Shown: positions 3,723 through 41,019 of the stretch, in pieces | Layout of the letters: every line of letters begins with the position of its first letter | Position numbering within the stretch: the first letter of the stretch is position 1 | From: a virus | Taxonomy: Duplodnaviria; Caudoviricetes | Virus record (IMG/VR): IMGVR_UViG_3300037067_026010 | Span: 1-64,000 of that record | Length of the DNA stretch: 64,000 nucleotides | Direction: 5' to 3' (one strand) | Made by a program: the position numbers and the translations under genes | The notes under the pieces: generated by a model | What the model saw: the letters and a program-made list of their open reading frames with translations, nothing else | Databases searched by the model: none | What the model was told of the DNA's origin: nothing

Positions 3723-3750
3723 AATATGCCATATTTATGCAGAATATTTA
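3723..3750 (-). promoter_or_regulatory. putative phage promoter TAAA-N16-GGCATATT (copy 1)
   Basis: Minus strand cTAAA-TATTCTGCATAAATAT-GGCATATTag, about 25 nt downstream of an intrinsic terminator. Confidence 0.65.
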
Positions 3751-3776
3751 GTACACGGATGGGTGCTTATCTAACG

Positions 3777-3816
3777 AAAAAAGCCCAATAACCCGTAAGG
3801 TACGGATCATTGGGCT
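3777..3816 (-). terminator. intrinsic terminator
   Basis: AGCCCAATGATCCGTA-cct-TACGGGTTATTGGGCT followed by a T-run on the minus strand. Confidence 0.75.
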
Positions 3817-3928
3817 AAGTACCGTAGCACCTGGTCCAGCCGGACGATGATTCAATTTGGTAGACTCCGTCATCATCCGGCCAGAGTCGCGGAGGACACG
3901 GCTACTATCTGGTAATTAAACACCGCCA
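3777..3928 (-). ncRNA. candidate small RNA (~150 nt)
   Basis: Bounded by promoter copy 2 and the terminator; rod-like stem CTGGCCGGATGATGA/TCATCGTCCGGCTGG extended by GTAGC/GCTAC; no SD-led ORF. Confidence 0.5.
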
Positions 3929-3934
3929 CAACCT

Positions 3935-3962
3935 AATATGCCAGTTTTTCTCAGATTATTTA
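3935..3962 (-). promoter_or_regulatory. putative phage promoter TAAA-N16-GGCATATT (copy 2)
   Basis: Minus strand gTAAA-TAATCTGAGAAAAACT-GGCATATTag; the TAAA box overlaps the upstream stop codon. Confidence 0.65.
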
Positions 3963-4121
3963 CGGCCTGCGCACCAGCCAGCCAAGCAGCCAGTCGACCG
4001 GTAAAAAGAGTTTTTCCAGCCAGCCCGGAATGGCGGCAGTAGGCTTCAACGTAAAATAGATGCCGCAGCCGATATACGCTACGGTATACAGCCCAACGAC
4101 ACCGCAGATGGACCATAGCAT
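3960..4121 (-). CDS. small membrane protein (53 aa, below the ORF-track cutoff)
   Basis: AAAGGAAG SD; MLWSICGVVGLYTVAYIGCGIYFTLKPTAAIPGWLEKLFLPVDWLLGWLVRRP*; N-terminal hydrophobic helix. Confidence 0.65.
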   Translation of the reverse strand: MLWSICGVVGLYTVAYIGCGIYFTLKPTAAIPGWLEKLFLPVDWLLGWLVRRP

Positions 4122-4135
4122 GGCGATCTTCCTTT

Positions 4136-4453
4136 TCAAAAAGTGATACGCACCATACCGCCATGATTATTAGGGCGGATGACGCGCATCTGTTTGGCCT
4201 GTGCGAGCTGTTTTAATTCTGCGCGTTTAACTGCCGGCAAGGCAACGATGCACTGGCGGACTTGACTGAGCAACATCGTAGTGTTCGCCGTACTGCGCTT
4301 CCGGCGACATCCGCTACAACCGTGCTGCACCGTCTGTAGGTTATTCAACAACTGTTGGCCGTTTGCAAAACAGGGAATGGCGGCTCTGTATCGAAGATCG
4401 CGCAGCATATTTAACAGCACCGCGTCGTCAAGAACCAGAAGTTCGTGTGCCAT
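4136..4453 (-). CDS. hypothetical GCxxC protein (paralogue of 4922-5263)
   Basis: MAHELLVLD...PCFA...GCSGC. Confidence 0.75.
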   Translation of the reverse strand: MAHELLVLDDAVLLNMLRDLRYRAAIPCFANGQQLLNNLQTVQHGCSGCRRKRSTANTTMLLSQVRQCIVALPAVKRAELKQLAQAKQMRVIRPNNHGGMVRITF

Positions 4454-4912
4454 TTATAATACCTCAGACGACGATTCTTCTTCCATTTCGGAAGACTCTT
4501 CCTCAATTGTACCGATAATCTCCGTGCCGCCGGTAACCAAGGCGTCCATAATATCCAACGTGGCTTTAAGCCGACGCACATCCTCGTAAACGCCTGCAAC
4601 AAAATCTTGGGCCTCGGCCACGGACCGCAATAGCACGTCCACATAGGCCAGGCGGAACCATTCCGGGCGCCGCGTGGTAACCGGGCCGTCCTCGGGGTAG
4701 TCCACGAGATCCGGAGGCGAACAGATGTGGCTAAAGTATCCCGTATCCTGCCCGCTTGCCGGGTCTCTGGGCAACATGCGATAGGCAAAGACCTTGAGTG
4801 GCATATTCTGGGCGGCGACCGCGTCGATGCGCACACGTACGCCGTCGTGGCGTCCGTACACATAATGACTGCAGGTCCATGTCAATTGGATTCCCCGCGT
4901 TAAAACGGCCAT
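4454..4912 (-). CDS. hypothetical protein with acidic Ser-rich C-terminus (152 aa)
   Basis: AGGA SD; abuts its neighbours. Confidence 0.75.
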   Translation of the reverse strand: MAVLTRGIQLTWTCSHYVYGRHDGVRVRIDAVAAQNMPLKVFAYRMLPRDPASGQDTGYFSHICSPPDLVDYPEDGPVTTRRPEWFRLAYVDVLLRSVAEAQDFVAGVYEDVRRLKATLDIMDALVTGGTEIIGTIEEESSEMEEESSSEVL

Positions 4913-4921
4913 CCTGTGTCC

Positions 4922-5263
4922 TCAGAATTGAAATTTGACGGGTGGATGCTCCAGATACGGACGATAGTATAGCACAACGGGACGGCACGGGCGACCTTTT
5001 TTTAGCTCTAAGAAGGTTCGTAGACGCTCTACAGCTTCCGGATATCGCACACGATACTGCTGCAGCAGTTCCACGAACGCAGAAATCCTTGGATAAAGCT
5101 GCAGCCAGCGGCCATGTGCACAACGAAGGCAGCCGGTCGCCGGCGGCGACGCCGGCACAATATTTTGAATTGCCGCAAAGTCCGGGCAATGCTCATAAAA
5201 GTCTTGAGTCTGCACCAGCCATACTAACTGTGTTCTGTCCAAGACCAACAATTGCGATGTCAT
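4922..5263 (-). CDS. hypothetical GCxxC protein (paralogue of 4136-4453)
   Basis: MTSQLLVLD...PDFA...GCLRC; ATGA overlap with the upstream gene. Confidence 0.75.
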   Translation of the reverse strand: MTSQLLVLDRTQLVWLVQTQDFYEHCPDFAAIQNIVPASPPATGCLRCAHGRWLQLYPRISAFVELLQQYRVRYPEAVERLRTFLELKKGRPCRPVVLYYRPYLEHPPVKFQF

Positions 5264-6462
5264 CTTAAAACGACAGGTATGACCGGCTGCGCCAGGCGCA
5301 AGACCGTCGGCTGACGGGCCGGCGCCATCACGGCCGGGTTGGGTCGGCAGGCCACCGGCCCCTGGTGTCGCGGCCCCGTCAGCGATGCGCCTGTCTGAGT
5401 CCGCGGTATTGCAGCCGGAGCCGGCAAAGGAGCTTGGTCGGCTAAACTGCTAATACGGCGTATCGCCTCGGCCGCCGGGACCGGACTTTGCGAGATGGGC
5501 GGCAAACTTTTATCTTCGTAATACGACATGACAGCCTCCATGACGTGGTCCACGGTAATTGCATCTAAACACTGCGGCACAGGTTGCTCGGGATACATTA
5601 CAGGTCTAAAACACAGGGATTTATCCTGGTCTATTTCCACGACCTTGTTGCGCCAGCAACCGGTGTACGGGCAGCAGTCGAACATGCCTATCGTATGCAG
5701 GTAGCGATGCGGCATGGGGAGCGTTTGTGCCAGCTCAGCCCCGCCTAGTCCGATATTTTGCCGGACATAAGCCTCCCACCACCAGGCTTCGCGTCCTCCC
5801 GCCAAAACTATGCAGGGCCGGTGCAATGCGGCTGCGGCGTGCATGAAAAACGTCACGGGGCAAATGACGCCGTCGGCCTGGGCAATGATGCGCAGCGCAT
5901 CGCGCAAGCCGGTCTGCCCGCAGAGGTTGAGTACGCCGGTCAGAGGCATATGCCAGTGACCCGGTTTATTGCCGCCGTCCTGGACGACGCCGAGGCCACA
6001 CTGTCGCAAACAGTTGACAACCTGTTGCATTTTCCGGCAGTCCCAGACTTTGGCGGTCAGGTCGCTTTTGCCTCCGTTGATTATGAGCCAGTACCTACCT
6101 TCGACGATGCGATTATTCAATTCGTCGTCGGTAAGATGCAGGTCGGGATAAGGCCGGCAGAGCGGCACCGCAATATTCGTCTGCTTTTCAAAATCGCGGT
6201 GGAAATATGACAGAAAATGCACCGTCTCCCGCACCTGGTCGATCAAACCCTGGCCGTACGAGATATTGATATGTTCGACGTCACGGCGGTAGACGCCCCG
6301 CAAAGGCGTAATGTACGGATTGTGTTCCCAGAGCTCCGGCGAAAAGCAATTGACGTCGATGGCAAATTGCCCCGGATAGGTCAAAGCAATATCGCGCACC
6401 AGAGCTGTCAGCACCGTAAGGTCACCCGGCGCACGGCGATGGGTCAGTATGATCTTGCGCAT
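5260..6462 (-). CDS. glycosyltransferase, GT9 (heptosyltransferase-like) family
   Basis: N-terminal RRAPGDLTVLTALVRDI; LNLCGQTGLRDALRIIAQADGVICPVTFFMHAAAALHRPCIVLAG matches the GT9 C-terminal motif; Pro-rich tail. Confidence 0.8.
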   Translation of the reverse strand: MRKIILTHRRAPGDLTVLTALVRDIALTYPGQFAIDVNCFSPELWEHNPYITPLRGVYRRDVEHINISYGQGLIDQVRETVHFLSYFHRDFEKQTNIAVPLCRPYPDLHLTDDELNNRIVEGRYWLIINGGKSDLTAKVWDCRKMQQVVNCLRQCGLGVVQDGGNKPGHWHMPLTGVLNLCGQTGLRDALRIIAQADGVICPVTFFMHAAAALHRPCIVLAGGREAWWWEAYVRQNIGLGGAELAQTLPMPHRYLHTIGMFDCCPYTGCWRNKVVEIDQDKSLCFRPVMYPEQPVPQCLDAITVDHVMEAVMSYYEDKSLPPISQSPVPAAEAIRRISSLADQAPLPAPAAIPRTQTGASLTGPRHQGPVACRPNPAVMAPARQPTVLRLAQPVIPVVLR

Positions 6463-7630
6463 TGGTAGTGTCGATGGGGTACGGGCCGAGCCAGTTCAAG
6501 GAGGTACGTTGCCGTTCCGCGTACCAGCCGTTGCCGGCCTGGACGTCCCGGAGCATGTCAAAAAATTCCTGATACATATAACGTACGTTCCACATGGAGT
6601 AGCGATCTACCGCCCGCTTGCGAATATAGCACGGATCGAGATCTCTAACATGGTCCGCGGCCCATAGAAATTGCTCCATGGTTCGGCAGCGAAATCCGGT
6701 ACGGCCATGTTCGACGGTTTCGGTGAAGGCACCCCAATCCGTGGTTAATACGGGCGTGCCGACGCATTGGGCTTCGACGGCTACTCCGCCGAACGGCTCT
6801 ATGTACAACGTGGGCACCAATACTGCCTGCGCACGGCCCATGATTTCGGCGCGGCGCTGTACGTCGAGAAAGCCGACATACTCTAAGCCCGGGGCACGCA
6901 TCTCTGTGCCGTCCATGCAGACGAGCCAGCCCGGCCCGTGGGCCCGGCAGCCTTGTCCGCCGACTAAAAGCCGTTTTTTAGCCCGTTTGGCGATGTCGGC
7001 CGCGACTGCCACGCCTTTGCGCTGGATCAATCGCCCCACGTAGAGCAAGTAATCTTCTTTCTCGGCACGGAGCGGCCACATATCGGGATCAAAATAATTA
7101 GGAATGACCGTTTCGTACCAAGCCCCGTCTGCGGCCAATCCGCGCGTGCCCATCATAAAATGCAACAACGCGTAACTCTCGTAGGCGCGAAACGGCGCAA
7201 GTACCCCCGTATAACCTATGCCGTATTCGACCGGCGTTAGCTTATTCTGTAAAAGCTCCAAGAGCGTTTTATGCGGTGTGCCGGTAATGAGACACAGAAA
7301 ATCGTGTTTCCTGGCGCGTTTGGCAATTTCAAAAGCGACGCGGATGTTCAGCAATTGCCAGTGGGGTTTGTCCCAAGACCAGTCAGGATTGTAGAGTTCG
7401 CGCGTCGTGTCCTGCACACCGAGAAGTTGTCGTTGTTCCTCTGCGGAAATGAGCTGCACATGTTCGGCGTTTTCCACCGTACTGCCTTCGGTACCGTAAT
7501 GAATTACTTCATGGCCCAGGCTGGTCATCATGCGCACAAAATTAAAAACCTTCATCGTGTAAGCGCAGCCGCAGTGTGCTAAACAAGTCTGCGTATGCGG
7601 CAAACCGACTACATGAAAACGGAAAGTCAT
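6422..7630 (-). CDS. glycosyltransferase, GT4 (GT-B) family
   Basis: LYVGRLIQRKG; EPFGGVAVEAQCVGTPVLTTDWGAFTETVEHGRTGF (E-x7-E motif). Confidence 0.9.
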   Translation of the reverse strand: MTFRFHVVGLPHTQTCLAHCGCAYTMKVFNFVRMMTSLGHEVIHYGTEGSTVENAEHVQLISAEEQRQLLGVQDTTRELYNPDWSWDKPHWQLLNIRVAFEIAKRARKHDFLCLITGTPHKTLLELLQNKLTPVEYGIGYTGVLAPFRAYESYALLHFMMGTRGLAADGAWYETVIPNYFDPDMWPLRAEKEDYLLYVGRLIQRKGVAVAADIAKRAKKRLLVGGQGCRAHGPGWLVCMDGTEMRAPGLEYVGFLDVQRRAEIMGRAQAVLVPTLYIEPFGGVAVEAQCVGTPVLTTDWGAFTETVEHGRTGFRCRTMEQFLWAADHVRDLDPCYIRKRAVDRYSMWNVRYMYQEFFDMLRDVQAGNGWYAERQRTSLNWLGPYPIDTTNAQDHTDPSPCAG

Positions 7631-7694
7631 AATAGCACCATTGCGGAATTTCGATCAGCATAGCCGGACCTTTATTCGCCAGCAAGCCCCAAAT

Positions 7695-8507: not shown

Positions 8508-8510
8508 CGG

Positions 8511-9611: not shown

Positions 9612-9614
9612 GCT

Positions 9615-10388: not shown

Positions 10389-12414
10389 CGGCTACCCCCA
10401 CCTGAAAATAAGTAAAATGCGTCTCGGCGCCTTCGCTGAATACGCCGAAGCTGCCTGTATCGACCGAATAATCCGGCAGGGTTACGTCGTAGACCAGATC
10501 CGTGCCGTCCAGATCCATACCGTAACCGAGGACCTGGCAATGCATCGGTTGAGCCAGGATAAGGGCACGCAACATGCAGGGGCCGAGCGGAATGAGCGCG
10601 GCTTTACGCGATAGTTCCGCAGCAGTGCCGTTTTTATAATGCTCCAGCACGATCTCTTGCGTTAGATAATCCGCGTATAGCTTGAAATAATTGGCGCTCG
10701 TTTCACCGTCCGGCATGGCGCGGTAATTAAACACCAGGCCGCCGTTCACGGCCTCGTTGGCATTGTCCAACGTAAAGCCGACCAGGCAGTATTGGCCGAG
10801 CGCCGTGGCGGCGATGCACTGCCCGCCGAGCCACAATGCGACGTTGCTGCTGGTCCCAGTCGAGTCCCACGAGCTCTCCGCGGCGACCCATGTGCCCTCT
10901 TGCTCCGTAAAGTCCGGCAGGCTGTATACCAGCGTACCTACCCCGCTTTCGCCGACGGTAAATTTTGTAAACTCTGTGGTAGCACCAAAACTGCGAATAC
11001 CAAACTGGCCGCTATCGATGAACTCCTCCGTATACGACACACCGATCGTCAGATTGGCGCCGCCTGCACCCATGCCGTAGGCCGTAACTCCGAACAATAC
11101 TTCTCCGGCAGTTTCTCCGGCGACGACGTCGATACGCACCTTGCATGCACCCAGTGGCACCGTCGCCGCTTCGCTGGCCAGGATGTCCTCGCTTATACCG
11201 GTAAAATGCCGCAATGATACGGTCTGCTCATTGTAGTTCACGTGCACATAGAAAAAATCGTTGGAGTAGTATCCGGTGGTCCGCGAAAAAACGTCGTGTC
11301 GGAAATTGAAGACCAACCCGCCGTTAATGTTTTCCGGATAAGCATTCGTGAGCGTAAACTCCAAAATGCCGTAATAACCGATCGTTTTAACCCCGGTGCA
11401 GGCGTTGCCGGTCCATATCGCCGTATTCGGTTGGAATTGGCCTATGGCCTCGTAGGCGGCATACTGCATGTCGAATATGCCCTCCATAACGTAAAAATCG
11501 GCGGGAACGCCATTGCCGAAGGTCTCTGTGAACGGCAGGGTGCACGGCAAATATTCCGAAGTCAATTCGGCAGTGCATAGATCCGTGCCGGACGCATTCC
11601 GTACACGTTGCTGCAGGCATATTTCCGACAGTTTGATAGAGTCCTCTAGGACCATGCCGGTGTCCCACTGCCCGCAGTTCACAAATGCTGCGGTCTGCAG
11701 TCCCTGGATGACTATGTTGATGTTTCCGTTGCAGTCCGGTACGACATCGTTAATGGATTCGATACCCTCCTTGAGGCACGTGCCGCTCTCGGGCCTGCCT
11801 CCACAGGGCCCTAAATAAGTCTGCATGGCGTCCAGGCGCGTCAGCCGGAATACGAAGGCATTGCGCAGGCCAATCTTCGGCAAAGCCACCAGTTCCTGTG
11901 TCGCGGTAATATCTGTTCCGCCGCGTAGCAAGACATCGCCGACGAGCCCCGTGCGCGCACCCTGTTTGCGTAATGACGGGATTGGCAACTCCGTGTAAGG
12001 CTGTGCGCAGTCCGGGGACAGCAAACTCTGCAACGGCGTGCTGAATCGCGCGTTAAAAGTGTCCCTCACGTTGCCGAAAACGACGACGCCGCCGGTGCCG
12101 GGTTGGAAGGGGGTAATAGCGTACGGCCGATACTCGTCAACCGGCTGCGGGATACTGACCGCCGCCAGTGGCGCGAAGGTTGTTGTCGTCTGGCTATTGG
12201 TTACTATGAACAGCGCCGTAACCACATGCGGAGTGACTGTAATGCCACCCAAGAACGCGTACTGCCCTAAGGCGGACGGCCAGCGCAATCGGCAATCTAC
12301 CAAGATATCGGACGGCAGTTGTTCGCCGCCGTCACCGACGGCGGTTGCCGTATCCATCAACGGATAGGCCCGCTGCGACTGCAGATTGTAATAATTGGGA
12401 TTGCGGTGAGCCAT
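10381..12414 (-). CDS. virion structural protein with two tandem beta-sandwich (lectin-like) domains; candidate receptor-binding protein
   Basis: NLQSQRAYPLMD; IESINDVVPDCNGNI; duplicated NGGLVFN[FY]R...PLG.C...YGM...D[ST]G.FG..S.GA.T.FT.F.VG. Confidence 0.65.
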   Translation of the reverse strand: MAHRNPNYYNLQSQRAYPLMDTATAVGDGGEQLPSDILVDCRLRWPSALGQYAFLGGITVTPHVVTALFIVTNSQTTTTFAPLAAVSIPQPVDEYRPYAITPFQPGTGGVVVFGNVRDTFNARFSTPLQSLLSPDCAQPYTELPIPSLRKQGARTGLVGDVLLRGGTDITATQELVALPKIGLRNAFVFRLTRLDAMQTYLGPCGGRPESGTCLKEGIESINDVVPDCNGNINIVIQGLQTAAFVNCGQWDTGMVLEDSIKLSEICLQQRVRNASGTDLCTAELTSEYLPCTLPFTETFGNGVPADFYVMEGIFDMQYAAYEAIGQFQPNTAIWTGNACTGVKTIGYYGILEFTLTNAYPENINGGLVFNFRHDVFSRTTGYYSNDFFYVHVNYNEQTVSLRHFTGISEDILASEAATVPLGACKVRIDVVAGETAGEVLFGVTAYGMGAGGANLTIGVSYTEEFIDSGQFGIRSFGATTEFTKFTVGESGVGTLVYSLPDFTEQEGTWVAAESSWDSTGTSSNVALWLGGQCIAATALGQYCLVGFTLDNANEAVNGGLVFNYRAMPDGETSANYFKLYADYLTQEIVLEHYKNGTAAELSRKAALIPLGPCMLRALILAQPMHCQVLGYGMDLDGTDLVYDVTLPDYSVDTGSFGVFSEGAETHFTYFQVGVADA

Positions 12415-14961: not shown

Positions 14962-16821
14962 TTACGCGGTGGCAGTAACAATGCCGGTAATACGCACGAT
15001 GCCGACCTCGCCGATATACCCGGCGGCACTTGCTCGTGTCACGGACAGCAATATGGTATCTCCGGGTGCCACCACGATGGCATCGCTTTCGATTTCGATG
15101 GCATTATACGCCGTGACCGCTACAGCCGTTGTGGCAAAATCGACTGTTGTATCCCCGGCGGCGATGACCGTGGGCGTACCTGTGACCGGCCTGGCCAGAC
15201 GCTGATACGTCATACCCATTGCCGGCAATGCGCCCGTCGTTGACCCGAATAGCATGACGCGTATTTTCAGTTGCGGATCCGCCGGGAGGCCGTCTACAGG
15301 TATATTCAGCCGCAGGCGTATTTCACTATCGCGGGACTGCGGAAAGCCTAAATACGGCACATCGGCATAAATGCGCTCCATGGCGTCGGCAAGCCGTACA
15401 ATTTGAGGTGCAATCTCACGTTCGCCGGGCTCGAGCGTCACGTTAATATGCACTAAGCCTTGATGCACCGTCGGGTTGTCTACGCCTGCGGGAGAATCCG
15501 GATCCAACAGACGGGTGTACTCCCCGGTGATCTGCACATATTCCGAATCGGCAATTAAACCTTCGGTAATGCGGCCGAGGCCAAATTTCAGACCCGGTCC
15601 CACTAACTGTTTAAACGCGCGGCTGCCCGCATATTCAAGAGAGTCCTCGACTGCCGTCAAATCGAATTGTGCCCATAGATCGCCCGTGGTTGCCGCTGCG
15701 CCGTCGCAATTAACGAACGAGATCGGGGAGTCGGTCGCCGTATGCAAGCTCGTGACGACGGTGTGCTGCGTCGCAAACAACATATGCACAAACCCCAGGA
15801 TGAGGCGCATGCGCTCCGGCCGCGGGCACGTAAGCACTTCTGAAGACAATTCTTCGGAAGGCAGACTATACTCCGGCGGAATATTGTCGTACCACGTCGG
15901 CCACGGTACGTCGTCGTAGCAGCCGCTCATCCACCAAATACCGTATCTGTCCATTTTCACGAGGGCTTCCGCGCCGGTCGTAGGTATTTCCGTGGCACCG
16001 TACTGCCCGTAGCCACGGTCCCAGAAAAGAACGGCGGATTCCAGCGGCACAGGCGGCCACACTCGTGCAACTTCCGGATGCGCAGCAAGGTTGTAGCCGA
16101 ATACTGCGCCCGCAGGGGCGTTGCCGGCGAAACTCGGATCATCGGCCGGAAGCCATCCGGGACTCTCAGCGTCGGCGTCGGTAATCGTATGCGTCATACC
16201 CGGTAACGGTTGGTCCGTGAGTCCCGCGGGCATACAATACAGCTCGAAGCGGTAGTGGATATGATTTTCCAGGAAGTCTCCGAGCTGCGGCAGCACGTAA
16301 ACATAGGTGGACGTTTCGCAGGCCGTCAATGGGCCCAAGACCACGCAAACAGGCACGGAGACGGGCGGCCGCTGTTGCGCCAATTTTCCGGCCAATGCCG
16401 AGGACAGATAATACCGGCCCGTCGCTATCGTGCCGTCGATCGCATTCGACATATCCAACGGTACGACGCCGCCCAGCACGATGTCGCCCAATACCGAGGT
16501 ACTCTTGCGATAACACAGGCCGATGCAGTCGCAGCTCGGATTGGGAATCAGCGTGCCGCTATCCAGATCGTTGGTTACCGTCGCCAGGGCCGCCTCGAAT
16601 TGTTGCGTCACGGTATTCCAAAACACGGGCTGCCCCAGCGCCACGGTGCTATCGACCCGCTGGTTTTCGAGCAGCAGCGCCCTTCCGGCCTCAATACGCG
16701 CGAGCGCGTCTTTCAGATAATTGGTACGGGCCTCCAACGCGCGTGCTGCCCGGCTATCGACCGCAGCGGTCACGGGCTCGTTGATTTTCGTATGCCGTAT
16801 CGGGTCAAATGTGCTGGCCAT
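14962..16821 (-). CDS. putative baseplate/tail-fibre-proximal structural protein (619 aa)
   Basis: Follows the baseplate wedge genes; N-terminal RALEARTNYLK typical of fibre attachment segments; beta-rich. Confidence 0.55.
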   Translation of the reverse strand: MASTFDPIRHTKINEPVTAAVDSRAARALEARTNYLKDALARIEAGRALLLENQRVDSTVALGQPVFWNTVTQQFEAALATVTNDLDSGTLIPNPSCDCIGLCYRKSTSVLGDIVLGGVVPLDMSNAIDGTIATGRYYLSSALAGKLAQQRPPVSVPVCVVLGPLTACETSTYVYVLPQLGDFLENHIHYRFELYCMPAGLTDQPLPGMTHTITDADAESPGWLPADDPSFAGNAPAGAVFGYNLAAHPEVARVWPPVPLESAVLFWDRGYGQYGATEIPTTGAEALVKMDRYGIWWMSGCYDDVPWPTWYDNIPPEYSLPSEELSSEVLTCPRPERMRLILGFVHMLFATQHTVVTSLHTATDSPISFVNCDGAAATTGDLWAQFDLTAVEDSLEYAGSRAFKQLVGPGLKFGLGRITEGLIADSEYVQITGEYTRLLDPDSPAGVDNPTVHQGLVHINVTLEPGEREIAPQIVRLADAMERIYADVPYLGFPQSRDSEIRLRLNIPVDGLPADPQLKIRVMLFGSTTGALPAMGMTYQRLARPVTGTPTVIAAGDTTVDFATTAVAVTAYNAIEIESDAIVVAPGDTILLSVTRASAAGYIGEVGIVRITGIVTATA

Positions 16822-21686: not shown

Positions 21687-22466
21687 TCACAGTCCTAAGC
21701 CGGATACGTATCGCTGATCGAGTAAATCCTGGATGGTGCGGCGCCGTTGGCTGATCAATCCAGGCGTTACGCCCAGCTTGGCGGCGAGTTCGGCTGTGTT
21801 AAGGACGCTATTTCCGTTCCAGCCAAGCGTGTGTTGCAGTATTACCTGATCGCGTGGTGAAAGATCATGGTACACGATATTTATCCAGGCGTCGTCGTCA
21901 GTCTGCCCCACCGGTCTTATAGGGGGCATTGGTGCATCCGAGGGTTGCGCAGCCAGGACACCCGTCGGTATGCTTCCACGATTTTTTCGTACATGCTTGA
22001 TGCGTTTTAGCGAAAACCCGGTATGGTCCGCCAACTCTTGATCGCTCGGTGCTCTACCCAAATTGTCCTCCAAGTTGCGCTCCGCATGATGCAATCGCCG
22101 CCAATCCAGGGCCACCTGCTCTGGTACACTGATCGCCGCAGCTTCACGCGCCCCGACACGTTGCAAGCCGCGCAAATGGGACATGAGGTGCGTCCGCAAT
22201 GGGCTTTTTGCCGGATCGTAGGTTTGCATGGCCTGCAGCGCCATGAGTTTAGCGCGAGTGCGCAACGTCGGACTGCCCTGGGAACCGGCGCCGTAGGCCC
22301 GTACCGCGTCGTCGAGCACCGGGCGTACTGACTCCAACAACGCCGTGCGCGTTTGTGGGGTATCCTCCTTCTTCCACGATTGCCAGGCGGTGGTATATTC
22401 CGGTGTTTCCGGGGTTTCCGGGAGCGGTTTTGGCCCAAGTCCTGGTTTGAGAATGTCGAAAACCAT
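21687..22466 (-). CDS. phage-encoded sigma70-family sigma factor (regions 2, 3 and 4; group-3-like)
   Basis: ALQAMQTYDPAKSPLRTHL (region 2), ISVPE...LEDNLGRAPSDQELADHTGFSLKRI (region 3), LSPRDQVILQHTLG...TAELAAKLGVTPGLISQRR (region 4 HTH). Start re-assigned to MVFDIL. Confidence 0.85.
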   Translation of the reverse strand: MVFDILKPGLGPKPLPETPETPEYTTAWQSWKKEDTPQTRTALLESVRPVLDDAVRAYGAGSQGSPTLRTRAKLMALQAMQTYDPAKSPLRTHLMSHLRGLQRVGAREAAAISVPEQVALDWRRLHHAERNLEDNLGRAPSDQELADHTGFSLKRIKHVRKNRGSIPTGVLAAQPSDAPMPPIRPVGQTDDDAWINIVYHDLSPRDQVILQHTLGWNGNSVLNTAELAAKLGVTPGLISQRRRTIQDLLDQRYVSGLGL

Positions 22467-25425: not shown

Positions 25426-28400
25426 CTAGGCGAGTACCGTAGTATAGTCGGCCGACGGCATTAGCATCATCTGATCGATGACCATATCGTTGCCTTCGAG
25501 GTGTACGCGGCCGCCGGTTACTGTCATTTTGAGCGGCTTATCCTGCTGCTCTTTGGCACGTACCGCGTCGGCCTTGGCCTGCTCGTCGGCCTGTTGTTTT
25601 TTCAACTGCTGCGCTTCCGCGGACAGTTGTCCGATTTCCTGTGCGTGTTTTTGCGGATCCTTTGCCAGGCCTTCGCGGCGTTGCTCGATGGAACGTATAC
25701 GCTCGGCCAGCGGTACTTCGTGTTTTTTTGCCTCGGCCTCATCCAAAGCATCGCGCTCCGCCTTCAAAGCCGCCAAACCCGTTTGTGTCTGCTTATCTTG
25801 GGGTGCTTGCTCCAGAGTCCGGATAGCCGTCGTGAGCTCGTCGCGCTTGCGCTCTGTTTCCGTAGGGGCATCGCGTCTCAAGCGTTTCAAGTGTTCCGCT
25901 AAGCCGTCGGCGCTGGTAATGTCCAATGCCGCCAGCTCTTTATCGATACTTTGCAGCCGTGCTGCTTTCTGCCCGGCATCCGGCTGTTTTAACAACCACG
26001 CGCGTTCCTTTTGCAGTGTCTCCCGCATTTGAGTATTGTCAGTACCGCCTTTGGCCAATGCCGCAATCATCTTATTGGCGCGTTGGGCCTGCGTACGGCC
26101 TTCTTCGGTCATCAAGCCGGTTTTTGGGTCCACCATCTGGAGCGCGCCTTCGGCGGCTGCCAACTGCCGCTGAAACTCGCGCATCGTCGGATCGCGCCCG
26201 GCCAACTCCTTCAGATCGATGCCGCCGAGCGCCGCCGCGCCGAGATCGCGTAAGCTCGTATCGGCCCGGCCCTCCCGTACGGCATCGGAGATGCGGGCTA
26301 CCATGCCCTCTCGCCCTAGGCTGCTTAATGCTTGCTGGGTGTCCGCAACGGCAATAGCGCGCTGCTCCTCTTGCACGGCCCGGGCACGCGTTCGCGGGTT
26401 TCCAAGCTGATATAGATGCAATGCACTCTCCGCCTGGCCCTGCATCGAGGCCGTCACGTCGATTTGCGACCACAATTGGCCGGCCAACATGGTCAGCTGT
26501 TTTTGACTCAATCGACCGGGACCGATTGCTTTATCTAAGGTTTCCGCAAGAACACGATGCCGCTCTGCAGGCGTTGCCGCCACGGTGGAGTCCATTTGCC
26601 AAAAAGCTTTGTTTACGGCGTCGCCAACGCGAGTCATAAACGCCTGCTGACCACCTGGCGCTTGTTGAGCAATCGTATGAAGCTCCCGGCTGGTAGCAAT
26701 GACATTTTGCGTGCTGCGTTTCACCGTATTGGAGTAATCGATTTGCTGCTGTGCTCGAGCTGCGGCCCTGTCCAGTTGCATATCTCGCGTCATCTCTTGA
26801 TTGGCTTTGACGTCCACCAGGTATGCCAAGGCTGCATCACCCGACATGCCGCCGGCCTTCATAAGCTTCAGGATGTCGTCCTGCGATATTGCCCGCAGTG
26901 TACCGGCGGCCTCCTTTCGAAAACCGACATTAAGCTCTTGTCCGCGGAATGCGTAAGTTTCGCGGCCTTCGCGCAGGGCTTGCAACATCGAGCCTGCCTC
27001 TGTATCCCGACCGAACAGTTCCGGATTGTCTCGTTGTGCCCGCAGTAATGCCGCCCAGCGATTTGCCAAGGGCGATACTGCGCCTGCCATACGAAGACGC
27101 TGGCCTTGCAACATAAGCTGTTCCGGAGTGGCCCGTCCCCAGGCAGGACGATCCCAGCCCGTATCGAGTCGCGCTGCAGCGCCAAAAGCCATGGCACCCT
27201 GCATGATGCCTGGGACCAGGGCACGGTCCATGCCCAGTTGATCTGCCATCCCGGCCGCTTGCGCAGTAAGCCCTAGCAGGCCCTGCATGCCTATGCCAGA
27301 TTGCTTGGCAAGATTATAGCTGGTACGGACTAATTGCTCGACGCGTGCAGGATCCATAGAGGCCATACTGCCTTGAGTAAGCGCATCCAGGCCGTTGAGT
27401 AGTTCGCGCATAGGCGCGTTGGGCCGGCCGAGATCCCCAAAAATATCCCGCATCGCCGACACCACACCAGTCAGATTGCTTAACCGCTGCTTTATGCGGT
27501 CTGCTTCGCCGGCGGCCAGCAAACCCTCCCCGACATCCCCGAGGTCCGTCAGACGGCCGCGCTCATTTTCATCCGTTTTCGCTGCGCGAATACGCTGATG
27601 TGCTGCAGTAACACGCTGATCCAAATCGCGAAACTCGTCTAATACATTGCGCCCCTCTGCCGTCTGTGTCTGTCCAGCATCTAATAACGCCTGCAGCTCC
27701 CGTCCACGGGTCGTACCGACCGCAATACGCCGCGTAGTGCCTTCATCCAACTCTTCAGGGAGGTAATCGCCGGCGCGCAACATGCGCTCTGCAAGCGTGC
27801 CCTCAGCGCCGATGCCACCACCCGACCACCCGCGTCTAACTGCTTCGTCATAAAGCACGCCTAGCGTGCCTGCCGAGATGCCTCGCATTTCGGCCCGGTA
27901 CTTGTCCGTGCTATACAGCCCTTCCCACAGGTGTGTTGCTACCATGCCTGCCGTGCGCGGAGAGGCACCAATGCTGCCTGTAACAGGGTCCAAGCCGGTG
28001 TACATCGTCCGGAATAACTGCCGGCCCAGTAAGGAAGCACTACCACGAGATCCGAACAGTTGATCGGCTATCTCCGTGCCGCCCAGCATCTCTACGAACG
28101 GCAGTAATGCCGTAGCGTCTTGTGCAATAATCCGTGCTTGTGCCTGCTCTTGTGGCGTTAACGTATTTCGGCCGGCATACATGCGCAACGCACCTTCGCC
28201 AATGGCTTGTGCCTGTCGTGTATCGGCCTGAAGAGCGGCCTGCGAAGCCTGTAAACTGTCCAAAAAATAGCGTTGGGCAACCAGTTGATCATAAATATTC
28301 TGGCTTGGCGCGAACTGCGCAGGGATTTTGCCCGGCCCCATCAGACTTTGAAGCACCATCGGCCCCAGCAACTGGGCCATACCGCCCGTGGTACCGCCGC

Positions 28401-32766: not shown

Positions 32767-32787
32767 AGCAACCTTAGTTCAAGGCGC

Positions 32788-32838
32788 AAAAACATGGGCG
32801 GCGGCCCGCCGCCCCGGCGACTCCGGCTGGAGTCGCCC
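32788..32838 (-). terminator. possible terminator (double hairpin plus T-run) after the tube gene
   Basis: GGCGACTCC-agcc-GGAGTCGCC, then GGGCGGC-gggcc-GCCGCCC, then atgTTTTT. Confidence 0.45.
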
Positions 32839-32853
32839 AATAGGCACTGCTGG

Positions 32854-33300: not shown

Positions 33301-33435
33301 GTGCGTTTAACCTCCGTGTCAAACCGCCCTTACGGGCTTGATGGTTGTAAGTTGCAAACGCCTGCCCACAGTGGGGCAGGGCGTTTGCGCGAGATTCTAA
33401 ACAAAAACAGTCCCACAGCGGGTTGTCATATTACC

Positions 33436-36303: not shown

Positions 36304-36347
36304 CCTTGCGGCCTCCTATCCGGGTCCTCGGTGAGGGTGTAATTCCT

Positions 36348-37052
36348 TTACAAGATCAAATCCGCCACCTGGAAACGTACTTGTTTTAATCGTGGAGCTT
36401 CAATCGTTAAATTCCATCGCTCCTCGGCCAAGTATTCACAGCTGACGGGTACGACGTAATGTTCCGTCGCTTCTTGGACGGCCGCTAACTCGCCGATCGC
36501 CGTTAACTGAAAACGATGCAGCGAGAGTTGGTCCGCCAAAAGCGGCCCGAAGAACACCAGGAGTTTGGCAACTTCCGTGGCCAACACTTGGGTCTCGGCA
36601 CCCTGTTTACCCAGGGCAAAAATCGTGTGCGTACCGTGCCAGACAGATAAAAACCCTTGCGTTCCGGTACATGCGTCAACACCTGCCTGGTTTCCGATCG
36701 TCACCCGTTCGTGCCTCCAGCCGCCTTCTTTGAGAAGTAGGGCCGGACGCGCTTCCGTAAGTTCCGGACGCCAACGCGCGAGACTTTCGATATACAAACC
36801 CGTGTTGGCTTCCGATGTCCAGGCGCCTTCTTGTTGCAAGTAAGAACGCAAGGACGCGCTTCGAACATTCTCCGCATTACAAAAATGTTGCACCAATATC
36901 TGCCGTAGCGCCCCGGTCATTATCAGCGGCGTCTGTCCGATCGAACACAACGCACTTAGCTTGTCGAAACGTATTTCCGGTACGCTTCCATTCGGGTAAA
37001 GCGCCTCCACTTCTTCGGGGTTCGCGGCAGGCGTTGGACAAGCTGTAGTCAC
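36348..37052 (-). CDS. putative tail completion/terminator protein
   Basis: Position between neck and sheath; RPALLLK; GTHTIFALG..GAETQVLA. Confidence 0.55.
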   Translation of the reverse strand: MTTACPTPAANPEEVEALYPNGSVPEIRFDKLSALCSIGQTPLIMTGALRQILVQHFCNAENVRSASLRSYLQQEGAWTSEANTGLYIESLARWRPELTEARPALLLKEGGWRHERVTIGNQAGVDACTGTQGFLSVWHGTHTIFALGKQGAETQVLATEVAKLLVFFGPLLADQLSLHRFQLTAIGELAAVQEATEHYVVPVSCEYLAEERWNLTIEAPRLKQVRFQVADLIL

Positions 37053-37064
37053 GCTAATTGTGCC

Positions 37065-37214
37065 TCAAATGGGTGTACGTAGGCGGAATATTCTTGGTGG
37101 CTTATAGCGGTACAGGCTTAATTTCGGTAGCAGCCCGGATCGTACCTTTTCGGCCCAGTCCGTGTTGGGCGGCATGGGTCGTTCGTCCGGCGGCTTGTTT
37201 ACGGCTTGTGTCAT
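37065..37214 (-). CDS. possible small protein (49 aa)
   Basis: MTQAVNKPPDERPMPPNTDWAEKVRSGLLPKLSLYRYKPPRIFRLRTPI* fills the intergenic gap; weak SD. Confidence 0.35.
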   Translation of the reverse strand: MTQAVNKPPDERPMPPNTDWAEKVRSGLLPKLSLYRYKPPRIFRLRTPI

Positions 37215-37254
37215 TTATATTCCAAGATAGGCCGATTATCCTCAAAACGCAATC

Positions 37255-38514
37255 TCAAAAGATGCCGAAGTCCGGTATGGTTGTCCATGCCGGAGCAACC
37301 GCAGGCGGCGTGGCCACGAGCGGCTGATCGGTATTTTCGACTGAAACGGTTTCTGTAACCGGCTCCACAACGGTTATATCCACCACGTCAGGGCCGTACT
37401 CTCCCTGCTTTTCGTAGACCAGTACATATTCGCCAGGGTCCAGACCCATGGCCTCCGCCCAGGTGCCATTACCGACGGTGTGAGTTGCTGCAACGATCGC
37501 AGAGGCGTCCGGTGCGCCTAGGGCTTGATCGTAGTCCTCTTTCCGGTAAGCAGTTACGGTGGCGCCGACGATCGGGCACGGACACTCTCCGGTATCGTCG
37601 ATATAAGCCAGCGCGTTTTCGCCGCCGTAGTCGTGGTTTACGTAAATGCTGCCGCATCCAGCCAGGGACAGATATTCGGTCATGCGGGCTTGTGAAATCT
37701 GCAGGCCCTTGACCGGCAGCCTGTAAATCACATCCGTGAATTCGGCCAGGCGCAAGGTTACGTCCAGGACGAGCGGCACACTGCGGATACCGGCTTTTTC
37801 TTCCACGGAGTCCACGAACCACCGCTCGTCGGAATCCGCGTCGACGAAGATGTCTTCTTTGTTCAGCATGGGAAATGCCGTAACTCGGCAATGCTGTACG
37901 ACCTCACGGCTCTGCCCCGGCGGCGCAGCGCCATTACGGCGCTCCGTGTGCGAAGCACTGCCGGTTTCGAGCATCCAGGTAAAGGCCAGCGGAGGATGGT
38001 ATCCCGTACTGAAGCCGGTTCCGAAACATTCCGGGCAGCGGCTGTTGGTAATTTCCTCGGTCTGCGGGTCCAGGCAGTTTTGGCAACGCTGCCCGTACCG
38101 CAATCGCTTTAACAGGTACCCGCTCTTAGCCGCTTGCTTCCCTAAGAGCAATTCCTTGCGCACAATCTCGCGGGCGAGTATCCAATCCTTGTCCGACAGG
38201 CTGCCGAAACAGTAAATCGGCTCTGACACGTATTGCTGGACGGGCGTCGTTAGGACGACGCGGTAAAATACGTCGAGTGTTTTACCGTAGAGCCGTTTCT
38301 GCGTATCCACGGCCATCAAGCCATTGACCACAGGATCAGCGACATTTTCCCAGTCGGCTGCCGTAGAGGCGTTAGTGCGGCCGGCCTGGAGCTGAAAAGT
38401 GTACGGGCCGGGGTCGAGCAGATGCTCGGCTATCTCCCACCACACCTGCGTACCGCCTTCCACGACATGGTTGACGCGTAACCGGCGAAAAGGGAAGGAG
38501 GAGGTGTTGGGCAT
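37255..38514 (-). CDS. neck/head-closure protein with Zn-ribbon motif
   Basis: RCQNC...RCPECFGTGFSTGYHPP; N-terminal FN3-like W..YTFQL..W..YRV; C-terminal Ig-like domain. Confidence 0.6.
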   Translation of the reverse strand: MPNTSSFPFRRLRVNHVVEGGTQVWWEIAEHLLDPGPYTFQLQAGRTNASTAADWENVADPVVNGLMAVDTQKRLYGKTLDVFYRVVLTTPVQQYVSEPIYCFGSLSDKDWILAREIVRKELLLGKQAAKSGYLLKRLRYGQRCQNCLDPQTEEITNSRCPECFGTGFSTGYHPPLAFTWMLETGSASHTERRNGAAPPGQSREVVQHCRVTAFPMLNKEDIFVDADSDERWFVDSVEEKAGIRSVPLVLDVTLRLAEFTDVIYRLPVKGLQISQARMTEYLSLAGCGSIYVNHDYGGENALAYIDDTGECPCPIVGATVTAYRKEDYDQALGAPDASAIVAATHTVGNGTWAEAMGLDPGEYVLVYEKQGEYGPDVVDITVVEPVTETVSVENTDQPLVATPPAVAPAWTTIPDFGIF

Positions 38515-38559
38515 GGGTGTTTGTCGGATAAAAGCGGTGCTTAATTACCGCGGCTTGCT

Positions 38560-39654
38560 TTATTTGCACACATATCCACCACTATTTCTTTGCGCATAGC
38601 CGTACAGCGCGTATCCGCTGCCGATACCGCCCCAGCATGCCTCCAGATTCAATTCAGCCTTCTTGCGGCGTACGAATTCCGTGTAGGTGCTCCACCGGCG
38701 TGCAGCAGCGGCTTCGTAGTTCTGCTCCTTGTCCTGATCGTCGATATTAACCCCAGCGGCGCTGTACTGCAGCCGGTTCGCCCGGAACTGCTCCGCTGCC
38801 ATCATGAAGAGTTGCCCGCAGATCCCCTCCAGCCAGTGGTAGCGGTAGGGCATAGTCTGCGAAGTGTGTTGTACGATGTCCGGAGGTATTTCATTCCAAT
38901 AGGCCAGGGCATTTACGGCGGCAGACGCGATTTCAGCGTCGTCGAATTTTATATTGTCCAACAAGAAATTTTCGTTTCCGTCGCTGTCGCGCAGGTGCAA
39001 GCGCACTTCTGCAATCGACGGCGGCCCGTGCGGCCCGCGCCGCGACCAGAGGCTTCGATCGATATACAGGTAAAAAATGTTCGAAAAAAGAATATATTCC
39101 GCGGCTTCTGCATCGTCGTCGTTGACCAGCGCCATCTCCGCGAAATAAACGCCAGGCTGATTCGTCGCCTCCGCCGGTATGGTTGCGGAAACGACGCCAT
39201 TTGGCGCGTCGATGATCGTCGCTGGAAACTCATGCCTGCTCATGTCCACCAACTCGTTATACCCGACTGCCAAATACTCATGAATGCGCAATTTCAGGTG
39301 GTACGGCGCCTGGCAGGCCTGCCCGGCATTTGGATCTTCCTCCGGCAAGGTCTCGCCGTCCGGCGTCAAAAGGATTTGTTCCGAATCCAATTCCGTGGCA
39401 CACTCCAGACAGTCCGTCAGATCCACCGGATTGCCGGTGCGGTCCTGCATCGTCCAGCGAATTACGGCTTGCTGGCCGCTGCGCACCGTAATGGCCCGCA
39501 TACGGCTCAAGATCGGACGTTTATTTACTGTGGACAACGGCGCCGTTAGAATGTTTTGGCCGCCGCAGAACTGCGGGGTCAAACGCACCGGTTTTGGACT
39601 TGGCGCGTCGCATGGCGACTGCGCGGTAAGTGTCGGGGTAGCATTTACGGCCAT
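38560..39654 (-). CDS. neck/head-tail adaptor protein
   Basis: AAGGAG SD; EVRLHLRD..ENFLLDNIKFDDAEI..A...AL..WNEIPP; N-terminal beta domain. Confidence 0.6.
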   Translation of the reverse strand: MAVNATPTLTAQSPCDAPSPKPVRLTPQFCGGQNILTAPLSTVNKRPILSRMRAITVRSGQQAVIRWTMQDRTGNPVDLTDCLECATELDSEQILLTPDGETLPEEDPNAGQACQAPYHLKLRIHEYLAVGYNELVDMSRHEFPATIIDAPNGVVSATIPAEATNQPGVYFAEMALVNDDDAEAAEYILFSNIFYLYIDRSLWSRRGPHGPPSIAEVRLHLRDSDGNENFLLDNIKFDDAEIASAAVNALAYWNEIPPDIVQHTSQTMPYRYHWLEGICGQLFMMAAEQFRANRLQYSAAGVNIDDQDKEQNYEAAAARRWSTYTEFVRRKKAELNLEACWGGIGSGYALYGYAQRNSGGYVCK

Positions 39655-39707
39655 GTTCGTGCTCCTTGCAATAACATTGTATCAGACTGCTGCCCCCCGC
39701 CATAGCT

Positions 39708-39733
39708 AAAAAAAGCCGGGCTTGTAGCCCGGC
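39708..39733 (-). terminator. intrinsic terminator
   Basis: GCCGGGCT-aca-AGCCCGGC-TTTTTTT on the minus strand. Confidence 0.85.
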
Positions 39734-39752
39734 ACACGCTTTAAATCAGCCG

Positions 39753-40247
39753 CTAACGCCGCACATCTTGTTGCAACCGCAAGATATCGCGAATGCGCAC
39801 GGTCTCCGTTGCGGCCAAGCGTACATACCACCTGGTCAACGGCTGAGCCGCGTCTGCGTCGCGGACGGCATTCAAGCCTAGGCAGACGTGTCCTGGCGAC
39901 CAGGGAAGCTCGGTGTATAGTATATAGTGCACCGCAGGCAGCGTTTGCAGCGCCAGCAGCCAGCCTGGTAAATCTTGCATAGGCAGTTCTTGCCCGTTCA
40001 AGGCGATGCCGGCAAGGCGACCGTCTACAAGGGAAAACTGCAGTACATCGCACGGCCGTAGGCACACGTACAGTAACCCGAGTTTACGCTGCACCAGGCA
40101 CGCGAGCACGAGCGCGACAACTGCACCGAGTAGACTCAGGTAAGACACGTAGCTGGGCCAGTGCGGAGCGCACGACGGCAGCACGGCGGCGGCGATTAAA
40201 AGCACCGCGAAGCTTATCAACGCCAGACATTGTCGCAAAATTTCCAT
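39753..40247 (-). CDS. membrane protein (2 N-terminal TM helices, 164 aa)
   Basis: GGAG SD before MEILRQCL; two hydrophobic segments. Confidence 0.6.
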   Translation of the reverse strand: MEILRQCLALISFAVLLIAAAVLPSCAPHWPSYVSYLSLLGAVVALVLACLVQRKLGLLYVCLRPCDVLQFSLVDGRLAGIALNGQELPMQDLPGWLLALQTLPAVHYILYTELPWSPGHVCLGLNAVRDADAAQPLTRWYVRLAATETVRIRDILRLQQDVRR

Positions 40248-40310
40248 GCTATTGCTCCAAATCAGTTGGGAGGCCGAATCCTGGCCTCGACTTATGCACA
40301 AAACGCCCCG

Positions 40311-40511
40311 TCAGTCTTTCTTGCCCGGCGGGCAGCTCGCCAATCCCGCCACGATGCCCACAACGATACTCCATGAGGGCGTGGCAAAGAAAGGCCAACG
40401 AGGTGTCGAGACAAAACAGCTGATAAGATAAAACATGCCGTAAGACCCGAGGCAGGCGGCCGCCGCAGCGACTGCCAAGCGTATCGCGTAGGTAAGAGAA
40501 TAACGACTCAT
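40311..40511 (-). CDS. small membrane protein (66 aa, 2 TM)
   Basis: AAGGAG SD; hydrophobic. Confidence 0.65.
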   Translation of the reverse strand: MSRYSLTYAIRLAVAAAAACLGSYGMFYLISCFVSTPRWPFFATPSWSIVVGIVAGLASCPPGKKD

Positions 40512-40547
40512 AACAAAAACTCCTTAGTTAAAAAGTAAGATGATCGC

Positions 40548-40784
40548 CTATTCGTGAAATCTCCCCGATCGCCACTTGGAATAACGTAAACATAACGCCA
40601 AGCGGACGATCACGCACCGGCCACCCGGCCAGAAGAAGGCACGCAACGCCCGGAACCACCACGTACGGGGAACTACCATGTTGCCATTGACCACCGGGTA
40701 TCGCCGTATGAGGATTTCGATAAAAATTTCCGTACAGAGGAGATACGTGCACACTGCCGCCAAAATGTACAGAACGTATATCAT
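40548..40784 (-). CDS. small membrane protein (78 aa)
   Basis: N-terminal TM helix; AFFWP motif; AAAGG SD. Confidence 0.6.
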   Translation of the reverse strand: MIYVLYILAAVCTYLLCTEIFIEILIRRYPVVNGNMVVPRTWWFRALRAFFWPGGRCVIVRLALCLRYSKWRSGRFHE

Positions 40785-40836
40785 TTGCCGCTGCCTTTCT
40801 CCGCCCGGACGGTAAAGTTTTGAAGTAACATTTTCT

Positions 40837-40929
40837 TCAATCCTCGCTGAAGGGGTATAAAATGATTTGTCTCCTTAAAATAACGGATTGCCGTATATAA
40901 ACATCGCCGCGTCGCAGCGGGTTATGCAT
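40837..40929 (-). CDS. possible 30-aa peptide directly after promoter copy 3
   Basis: Strong AAAGGAGGT SD; MHNPLRRGDVYIRQSVILRRQIILYPFSED*. Confidence 0.4.
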   Translation of the reverse strand: MHNPLRRGDVYIRQSVILRRQIILYPFSED

Positions 40930-40991
40930 GGTACACCTCCTTTGTGGTGAATTGGCAACTGTGCCGTTAGATAAATGCGCATCATCTATTC

Positions 40992-41019
40992 AATATGCCC
41001 GATTTATGCGCATTTTTTA
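40992..41019 (-). promoter_or_regulatory. putative phage promoter TAAA-N16-GGCATATT (copy 3)
   Basis: Minus strand gTAAA-AAATGCGCATAAATCG-GGCATATTg, 12 nt downstream of a terminator. Confidence 0.65.

Follow-up and report, generated by a model that had tools for sequence, protein, structure and literature searches.

The first 64 kb of a 210,569-bp phage contig from IMG/VR (record IMGVR_UViG_3300037067_026010, rated complete), referred to below as the window, contain a two-box motif, TAAA-N16-GGCATATT, which recurs with fixed spacing at gene boundaries of this genome and of its relatives. Three exact copies are located in the window, and two further copies with a single mismatch lie elsewhere in the genome. 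Their sequence features support a single strand-specific, gene-boundary class with rigid spacing that behaves as a promoter class. As for the reader of these sites, the balance tips slightly towards the phage-encoded sigma factor at 21687-22466 (sigma1) acting on the phage's own beta/beta-prime RNA polymerase, and the support for this pair is circumstantial.

Occurrence of the motif in the genome

The genome has a G+C content of 57%, and its minus strand carries 258 of the 274 called genes. In the window, TAAA-N16-GGCATATT has exactly three matches, all on the minus strand, versus 0.02 expected according to dinucleotide shuffles, none of which (0 of 100) reaches three. The remaining twelve GGCATATT octamers genome-wide are inside G+C-rich coding sequence and have no TAAA box. 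When one mismatch is allowed, two further N16 sites appear, both outside the window, on the minus strand and at gene ends. The sites and the terminator that precedes one of them are as follows.

3723-3750, minus strand: site 1, cTAAATATTCTGCATAAATATGGCATATT, an exact match in non-coding DNA with predicted -35 box (C)TAAA and predicted extended -10 box GGCATATT
3935-3962, minus strand: site 2, TAAATAATCTGAGAAAAACTGGCATATT, an exact match outside called genes
40992-41019, minus strand: site 3, TAAAAAATGCGCATAAATCGGGCATATT, an exact match in non-coding DNA between head-side and tail-side genes
41035-41068, minus strand: intrinsic terminator before site 3, ending the upstream head-side transcript (-31.1 kcal/mol, z = -4.97)
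genome 115881-115908, minus strand: site 4, GGCATAAT, one mismatch, its start overlapping the preceding gene's stop codon
genome 145375-145402, minus strand: site 5, GGCATATC, one mismatch, its start overlapping the preceding gene's stop codon

Thus, an earlier sequence-only reading of the window, which described three minus-strand copies with identical spacing, is borne out, and so is the location that it gave at gene boundaries, all three copies being outside called genes. It also placed two of them 12-25 nucleotides (nt) downstream of an intrinsic terminator, in agreement with the distances found: site 1 lies ~25 nt past the T-run of a 16-bp terminator hairpin (3782-3816) that ends the preceding unit, and site 3 lies ~12-15 nt past the 15-bp hairpin and U-run at 41035-41068. 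As for site 2, the TAA of its box is the stop codon of an upstream open reading frame (ORF) of 53 amino acids (aa).

The whole-contig scan that the same reading proposed was run and yielded the two additional sites. Moreover, when all 4-mer/5-mer dyads are counted in the intergenic DNA of the genome, TAAA-N17-GCATA ranks first, and all five of its genome-wide sense-strand copies are intergenic. According to a matrix built from 26 sites of other phages only, the five sites take ranks 1-5 in the genome with scores from 16.7 to 26.4 (25.6, 16.7, and 23.1 for sites 1, 2, and 3, respectively), and the next score is 11.6. The latter belongs to a look-alike on the plus strand (genome 196035-196072, AAAA-N16-GGCATATG), which scores below the maximum of the reversed-sequence control. 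Minus-strand genes flank this look-alike on both sides, and 196547-200890 (1447 aa), the only large plus-strand gene, begins ~480 nt downstream of it.

No second abundant promoter class was found among the intergenic k-mers or dyads of the genome, where the only other enriched words are an 18-bp palindrome, Shine-Dalgarno (SD) sequences, and T-runs. The words GGTGCTTAATTA and TAAGCACC represent a dispersed 18-bp near-palindrome, which occurs genome-wide and is unrelated to the promoter motif. Sigma-70-type matches (at least 10 of 12 positions) number only seven in intergenic DNA, several of them in or near an IS1 element. A megablast of the region against cultured phages returned no match.

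Conservation in related phages

Relatives were taken as IMG/VR contigs retrieved with the site-adjoining proteins at 37-61% identity. The motif recurs in these phages, which the sequence-only reading had also proposed to scan, on the gene (coding) strand and at the corresponding place. In the form (C)TAAA-N16-G[G/T]CAT[A/T] it has 2-10 copies per genome in eight genomes, which together hold ~42 copies on the coding strand versus 2 on the other strand. The counts for the coding and the other strand are 10/1 in G001, 5/0 in G002, 2/0 in G003, 3/0 in G004, 3/1 in G005, 9/1 in G006, and 5/0 in G007. Reversed-pattern controls give 0-1 matches per strand in seven genomes, and 1 and 4 in G006. The second box varies among relatives, being GTCATA in all copies of G006 and including GTCATTAT in G003.

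Three complete genomes with called genes contain 17 sites, all of them on the coding strand and 16 of them non-coding, versus a coding density of ~90%; in six of the 17, the box takes its TAA from the stop codon of the gene upstream. The N16 spacing is exact in all five sites of this genome and in ~40 sites of relatives, and N15 and N17 variants do not recur. Two columns that are independent of the search pattern are conserved as well, namely the C before TAAA (1.4 bits) and a T located 4-5 nt past the second box (1.8 bits).

Sites 1 and 2 are syntenic with G001:107561 and G003:113325, judging by orthologs of the flanking genes, and with sites in ~10 other contigs; site 2 lies downstream of a glycosyltransferase cluster in G001, G003, and about ten other relatives. 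The position of site 5 corresponds to G001:38705, while G001:151089 and one site of G005 are found one gene downstream of site 3, in the same module. Three of the positions are thus syntenic or nearly so. At 25-60% protein identity, unconstrained intergenic DNA would lose a signal of 12-15 positions, and the motif is therefore taken as functional.

Eight of the ten copies in G001 (IMGVR_UViG_3300035670_000009) are within 27 kb (12.3-38.7 kb). Near-identical downstream leaders are shared in this genome by the sites at 16570 and 17842, by those at 12337 and 18494, and by those at 27624, 38705, and 151089, which indicates that promoter-leader cassettes were duplicated.

Architecture of the motif

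The aligned sites yield the consensus (a)gCTAAAt - N - GC - W4 - N - (c/g)G(G/T)CAT(A/T)(A/T) - N3 - T-G. In this genome the base before TAAA is C in two of the five sites and G in three, and the W-tract of the spacer is A-rich in some copies and T-rich in others. The A of G-G/T-C-A-T is constant in every aligned site, though it was required by the searches, so that only its register counts as independent.

In the sigma-28 open complex solved by cryo-electron microscopy, the fliC promoter of P. aeruginosa reads (-36)TCTAAAG(-30) and (-15)GCCGATAA(-8), with A(-11) flipped out and -7 not read, and a Gln of helix 4.2 sets the -35 specificity of sigma-28 (FliA) (PMC12784957). With the phage TAAA assigned to -34 to -31, position -11 is taken by the invariant A of GGCAT, and T and A follow at -10 and -9, respectively. 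The two promoters share a CTAAA -35 core, 19 nt between TAAA and ATA, a G/C-rich extended -10 element of 3-4 nt abutting the core, and poor conservation of -7. Since the register and the TAAA-ATA distance are the same in both, N16 versus N15 merely reflects where the second box is drawn.

The extended -10 element, however, differs: it is GCCG for sigma-28 and (G)GGC or (G)GTC in the phage motif, with GCCG in none of 39 phage sites, all of which read (G/C/T)G(G/T)C. The phage motif also has T or A at -8 and a conserved T at predicted -3, unlike sigma-28 promoters. A search of this genome's intergenic DNA for canonical TAAA-N15-GCCGATAA in coding-strand orientation gave no match. Finally, the phage sites serve phage accessory units, whereas sigma-28 promoters serve flagellar genes. 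A classical architecture that lacks the sigma-28 -10 sequence points to a new specificity within a known promoter architecture.

Phage RNA polymerase and sigma factors

The following genes are relevant to the reader of the motif.

58116-64000, continuing to genome 65243, minus strand: RNA polymerase gene in which beta and the front half of beta-prime are fused
54006-57041, minus strand: separate gene for the back half of beta-prime, with a PF04998 match over the cut-off
21687-22466, minus strand: sigma1, a 259-aa sigma-70-family protein with domains 2, 3, and 4 in order, in the baseplate operon
genome 74573-75466 (L055:1372-2265), minus strand, outside the window: second sigma, 297 aa, with region 2 and region 4

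The gene at 58116-65243 matches PF00562 (173.6 bits) and PF00623 (43.1 bits) in one open frame, with intein domains present. Sigma1 is a divergent sigma-70-family protein: Pfam Sigma70_r3 is above the cut-off, PDB profile matches span regions 2-4, and its AlphaFold model (predicted local distance difference test, pLDDT, 76.8) aligns in Foldseek over ~250 columns with SigA, SigD, SigB, and RpoS chains (E 1e-7). These profile and structure-model matches uphold the proposal of the sequence-only reading that the phage encodes its own RNA polymerase and a sigma at 21687-22466; the second sigma was no part of that proposal. The same proposal had derived a group-3 sigma from the sigma-28-like architecture of the motif; here the architecture stands, in a register even closer than stated, but the group-3 assignment is not demonstrable, as the profile favours SigA/RpoS over FliA. 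Membership of sigma1 in the FliA family is thus not supported by the profile search. In NCBIfam, FliA_WhiG is its best match, with 29.9 bits against a cut-off of 189.6.

An ortholog of sigma1 is present in every motif-bearing genome, and in G001-G007 it is the sole sigma-family gene detected, except for one faint further match in G002 (E 0.0016, ~28 residues). The sigma1 tree has two well-supported clades. The one consisting of G000-G007 and G013-G020 holds every genome with the motif; its two smallest fragments, G019 and G020, were covered by the strictest scan only and show none. In the other clade (G008-G012 and G021) no motif is found, except for a lone match in G009, GGCATGGT, which is probably due to chance. 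All members of the motif-positive clade share the helix 4.2 sequence PGA(I/V)SQR in sigma1, in place of which the motif-negative clade has other residues. This helix aligns with GVTESRVSQI of WhiG, and the Gln that is equivalent in FliA is the one that determines -35 specificity. This pattern, taken from sequence comparison, agrees with direct read-out of CTAAA by sigma1.

In the model of the complex, sigma1 residues 37-77 (region 2) are placed on the helical hairpin 249-298 of the phage beta-prime fragment with a score of 0.81, compared with 0.01 for the best of three controls; as this is the textbook sigma/beta-prime interface, the result indicates likeness, may reflect remembered solved complexes, and is no proof of binding. 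The score mark is reached by 58 of 80 solved complexes and by 2 of 110 mismatched pairs. At least 54% of contacts are common to the model runs, and the pLDDT of the partner stays at 69 or above.

Covariation of the -13 base (G/T) with sigma1 residue 117 (Q/R) was also considered as a link and is unusable: G003 and G006 (all GTC, R117) fall in one weakly supported clade, G016 combines R with GGC, and G007 has both GGC and GTC. In our alignment, residue 117 is at the place of sigma-70 His455.

Proposed transcription units downstream of the sites

The units behind the three sites of the window are listed below.

3776-3934, minus strand: unit of site 2, a ~150-nt structured RNA with no SD-led ORF and with the 16-bp hairpin 3782-3816 followed by a U-run
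3585-3722, minus strand: unit of site 1, ~130 nt with five hairpins, including the terminator-like hairpin 3595-3620 followed by UUUGUGUUUUC
40311-40929, minus strand: ORFs behind site 3, namely 40837-40929 (30 aa, strong SD), 40548-40784 (78 aa), and 40311-40511 (66 aa)
39753-40247, minus strand: next gene in the site-3 cassette, 164 aa

The site-2 unit folds into a long rod and a terminator, with a minimum free energy (MFE) of -69.3 kcal/mol and z = -5.15. The site-1 unit has comparable values (MFE -58.3 kcal/mol, z = -5.24). No Rfam family or tRNA is found in either unit, only sub-threshold microRNA and RsmV noise. Downstream of the site-1 terminator, dense hairpins continue for ~400 nt (3183-3584, minus strand), a stretch that includes an 81-aa ORF (3212-3457); this ORF has no family match, and Rfam reports only sub-threshold noise over 3183-3584.

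Among the products of the site-3 cassette, those of 78, 66, and 164 aa are hydrophobic and the 30-aa one is not. Neither Pfam nor PHROG annotates any gene downstream of the sites. The cassette (39753-40929) is absent at the syntenic place in G001 and is possibly a lysis, exclusion or moron-type module. Hydrophobic-looking small ORFs, judged by eye, are also found behind the motif in contigs L009, L012, and L018.

As for the sites outside the window, site 4 is followed by a 77-aa gene, which has an SD-like AAAGGA and its start codon 43 nt past the box, while behind site 5 come first a hairpin with a T-run and then a 433-aa gene. The hairpin, ~20 nt past site 5 (genome 145340-145375, minus strand), has 10 bp and ends in TTTTTCT; at the syntenic site of G001 a 325-nt leader takes its place. 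It may act as an attenuator, make up a very short RNA or form a unit resembling the promoter-early stem-loop (PeSL) elements of T4-type phages. The expectation of the sequence-only reading that the motif leads into small genes or RNAs is thus not general, given the 433-aa gene behind site 5. The G001 site near site 3 precedes an ortholog of the 396-aa gene 37255-38445, which is not small either.

According to predicted folding, the first 40 nt downstream of 39 sites are more structured than random same-strand windows (-11.5 versus -8.9 kcal/mol, P = 1e-4), despite their lower G+C content. The first paired base is at most 8 nt from the box in 33 of the 39, which fits transcripts opening with a protective stem-loop.

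Alternative readings

Although unlikely, the sites may be promoters read by sigma1 on the host core polymerase, with the phage polymerase using other signals. This is the classical way in which phage sigmas such as gp28 of SPO1 and gp55 of T4 are used, and the profile of sigma1 matches cellular SigA/RpoS well over regions 2-4. As there are only five sites, most genes must be transcribed by the phage enzyme from signals of another kind. Reviews of jumbo-phage transcription describe either multisubunit polymerases with no recognisable sigma or phage sigmas serving the host polymerase (PMC7824862, PMC13282480). However, the phage polymerase and sigma1 are always found together in this lineage, and the model docks sigma1 on the phage beta-prime, subject to the caution about solved complexes given above. 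In phage Arash (OQ632216), moreover, beta, beta-prime, and the sigma Gp10 are all abundant virion proteins (PMC10585845).

A host flagellar-type sigma (sigma-28/FliA) on host polymerase, with some other job for the phage sigma, is a quite improbable reader. In its favour, sigma-28 promoters have the same CTAAA box at the same distance from the A-T-A core, but neither GCCG nor the canonical sigma-28 promoter was found in the scans described above. Besides, the motif tracks the sigma1 clade, being present in G000-G007 and absent from G008 and G010-G012, and a sigma of late flagellar assembly would be an odd dependence for a lytic phage.

It is very improbable that the motif has no promoter function and is instead a strand-specific DNA site, such as that of a repressor or an anti-terminator loader, or a signal for RNA processing or stability at cassette borders. 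Overlap with the upstream stop codon in six of the 17 sites places it in read-through RNA too, and a terminator-like hairpin comes directly after site 5. However, short boxes at a rigid 16-nt distance around a variable spacer are typical of recognition by a two-domain sigma, two sites are placed just behind terminators, where transcription has to be started anew, and the register matches the solved open complex. A-rich and T-rich W-tracts are equivalent in DNA and not in RNA, which fits a feature of the DNA rather than of the RNA. Hardly any weight falls on the second sigma, a well-conserved protein (TIGR02937 83 bits, full-length SigK and SigE matches, and RpoS-like matches) related to sporulation sigmas that use CATA-containing -10 elements, because this accessory gene of the phage has no ortholog in the motif-bearing G001-G007, three of which are 100% complete with 2-10 motif copies each, and so cannot be the conserved reader.

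Comparison with known phage systems

In Salmonella phage Arash and Vibrio phages D69, D148, and D181 the sigma gene is in the baseplate operon, as it is here, and Gp10 of Arash is 26% identical to sigma1 over half the protein. The genomes of Arash and D69, both cultured, contain no TAAA-N15-17-GGCATA site, and their sigma presumably has a different specificity. A de novo dyad search in Arash is dominated by tRNA genes and a five-copy repeat and allows no promoter call. Five conserved elements containing AAAAGTCATTCGTAATATATAAAGGGTACCTAATCTTATATAAGGGTCTTGAGG are present in Arash at ~26.7, 66.5, 100.2, 138.6, and 173.3 kb, i.e., ~34-40 kb apart, and three of them have a second conserved block ~54 nt upstream. 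A literature search revealed no paper on the promoters of Arash-type phages.

Phage sigmas that redirect the host polymerase include gp28 and gp33/34 of SPO1, a phage of B. subtilis, and gp55 of T4. Promoters of such sigmas in SPO1, T4, and jumbo phages with no RNA polymerase resemble the present ones in having a phage-specific consensus that is conserved in the lineage and tied to the sigma gene. Unlike in those systems, the phage described here always has its own beta/beta-prime polymerase beside the sigma. Promoters of the phiKZ/AR9 type consist of one short element close to the start of transcription, whereas this phage combines a two-box sigma-type architecture with a true sigma-70-family protein. 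The virion and non-virion polymerases of phiKZ and AR9 (PMC7598289, PMC9209446, PMC7618050) are similar to the present case in being phage multisubunit enzymes that use phage-specific signals, and possible delivery of the enzyme in the virion is a further likeness.

In T4-type phages, PeSL cassettes (Arbiol et al. 2010, PMC2839356), which mark points of gene exchange, are small units of promoter and stem-loop or terminator. They bracket accessory genes within long arrays, as seems to be the case here. Similar traits in the present lineage are the duplicated leaders of G001 and the site-3 cassette, which is one gene off its place in relatives. A terminator is found just before sites 1 and 3, and a hairpin after site 5. 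In contrast, PeSL promoters are sigma-70-like and numerous, while those described here are not sigma-70-like and have few copies.

Favoured explanation

Taken from promoter activity and start site through the identity of sigma and polymerase to the timing of expression, the mechanism we infer would be as follows. The five sites would make up one sigma-70-family promoter class, composed of (C)TAAA as the -35 box, 16 nt of spacer whose centre passes from G/C into a W-tract, and G-G/T-C-A-T-A/T-A/T as the extended -10 box, in which the invariant A is the predicted -11 base. By analogy with sigma-28, domain 4 of the sigma would read CTAAA, while domains 3 and 2 would read GGC and ATA, respectively. 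RNA is predicted to start ~6-8 nt past the second box, and most transcripts would open with a stem-loop. The conserved sigma1 on the phage's own beta/beta-prime polymerase would most likely be the reader. This small class, with 2-10 members per genome, would drive short self-contained units among long co-directional gene arrays, namely the two tandem terminator-ended RNAs (3585-3934), the small-ORF cassette 40311-40929 with two hydrophobic ORFs, the 77-aa gene, and the leader hairpin before the 433-aa gene.

Several points weigh against this explanation. All motif-bearing phages are uncultured, and the promoter role is predicted from their DNA. The lowest real site in the matrix scan (16.7) is near the best reversed-sequence control (15.7), so that by score alone the weakest site is not far above noise. 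The link between helix 4.2 and the motif is confounded by descent because there are only two clades. The family profile of sigma1 prefers SigA/RpoS (1e-17) over FliA (2e-5); its place in FliA/WhiG is not demonstrable, so that the resemblance of the promoter to sigma-28 promoters finds no backing in the family to which its proposed reader belongs. The hairpin and T-run within ~20 nt of site 5 would stop transcription early. Arash and D69 do not have the motif, and their virion data thus carry over by analogy only. Moreover, five, perhaps six, sites for ~270 genes cannot be the general promoter of the phage polymerase, and, given no second abundant motif and few sigma-70-type promoters, most transcription remains unexplained. 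Either the motif is a special-purpose class or the remaining signals are too degenerate for these methods.

By analogy with Arash, delivery of the holoenzyme together with the DNA is plausible in this lineage. A more specific version is offered tentatively, as something that may well not hold: a virion-carried holoenzyme of the fused beta/beta-prime and the sigma-70-family sigma might fire a few sigma-28-like promoters after injection and thus make early small RNAs and small, partly hydrophobic proteins.

Significance

The lineage has both a polymerase and a sigma, unlike either of the jumbo-phage groups that have been reviewed. The motif provides a concrete conserved DNA target for this pair, with five templates in the present genome and ~40 in relatives, for which a register, a start site, and a specificity helix are predicted. 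If sigma1 and the phage polymerase do act at these sites, a phage-borne polymerase can use classical two-box, sigma-dependent initiation, and the small RNAs and small proteins reserved for this machinery become defined. Should a virion-carried holoenzyme indeed fire these promoters, they would form the first class of sigma-dependent promoters used by a multisubunit RNA polymerase of phage origin. If the host or another factor reads the motif, it would still be a clean lineage-specific regulatory signal for annotating uncultured genomes.

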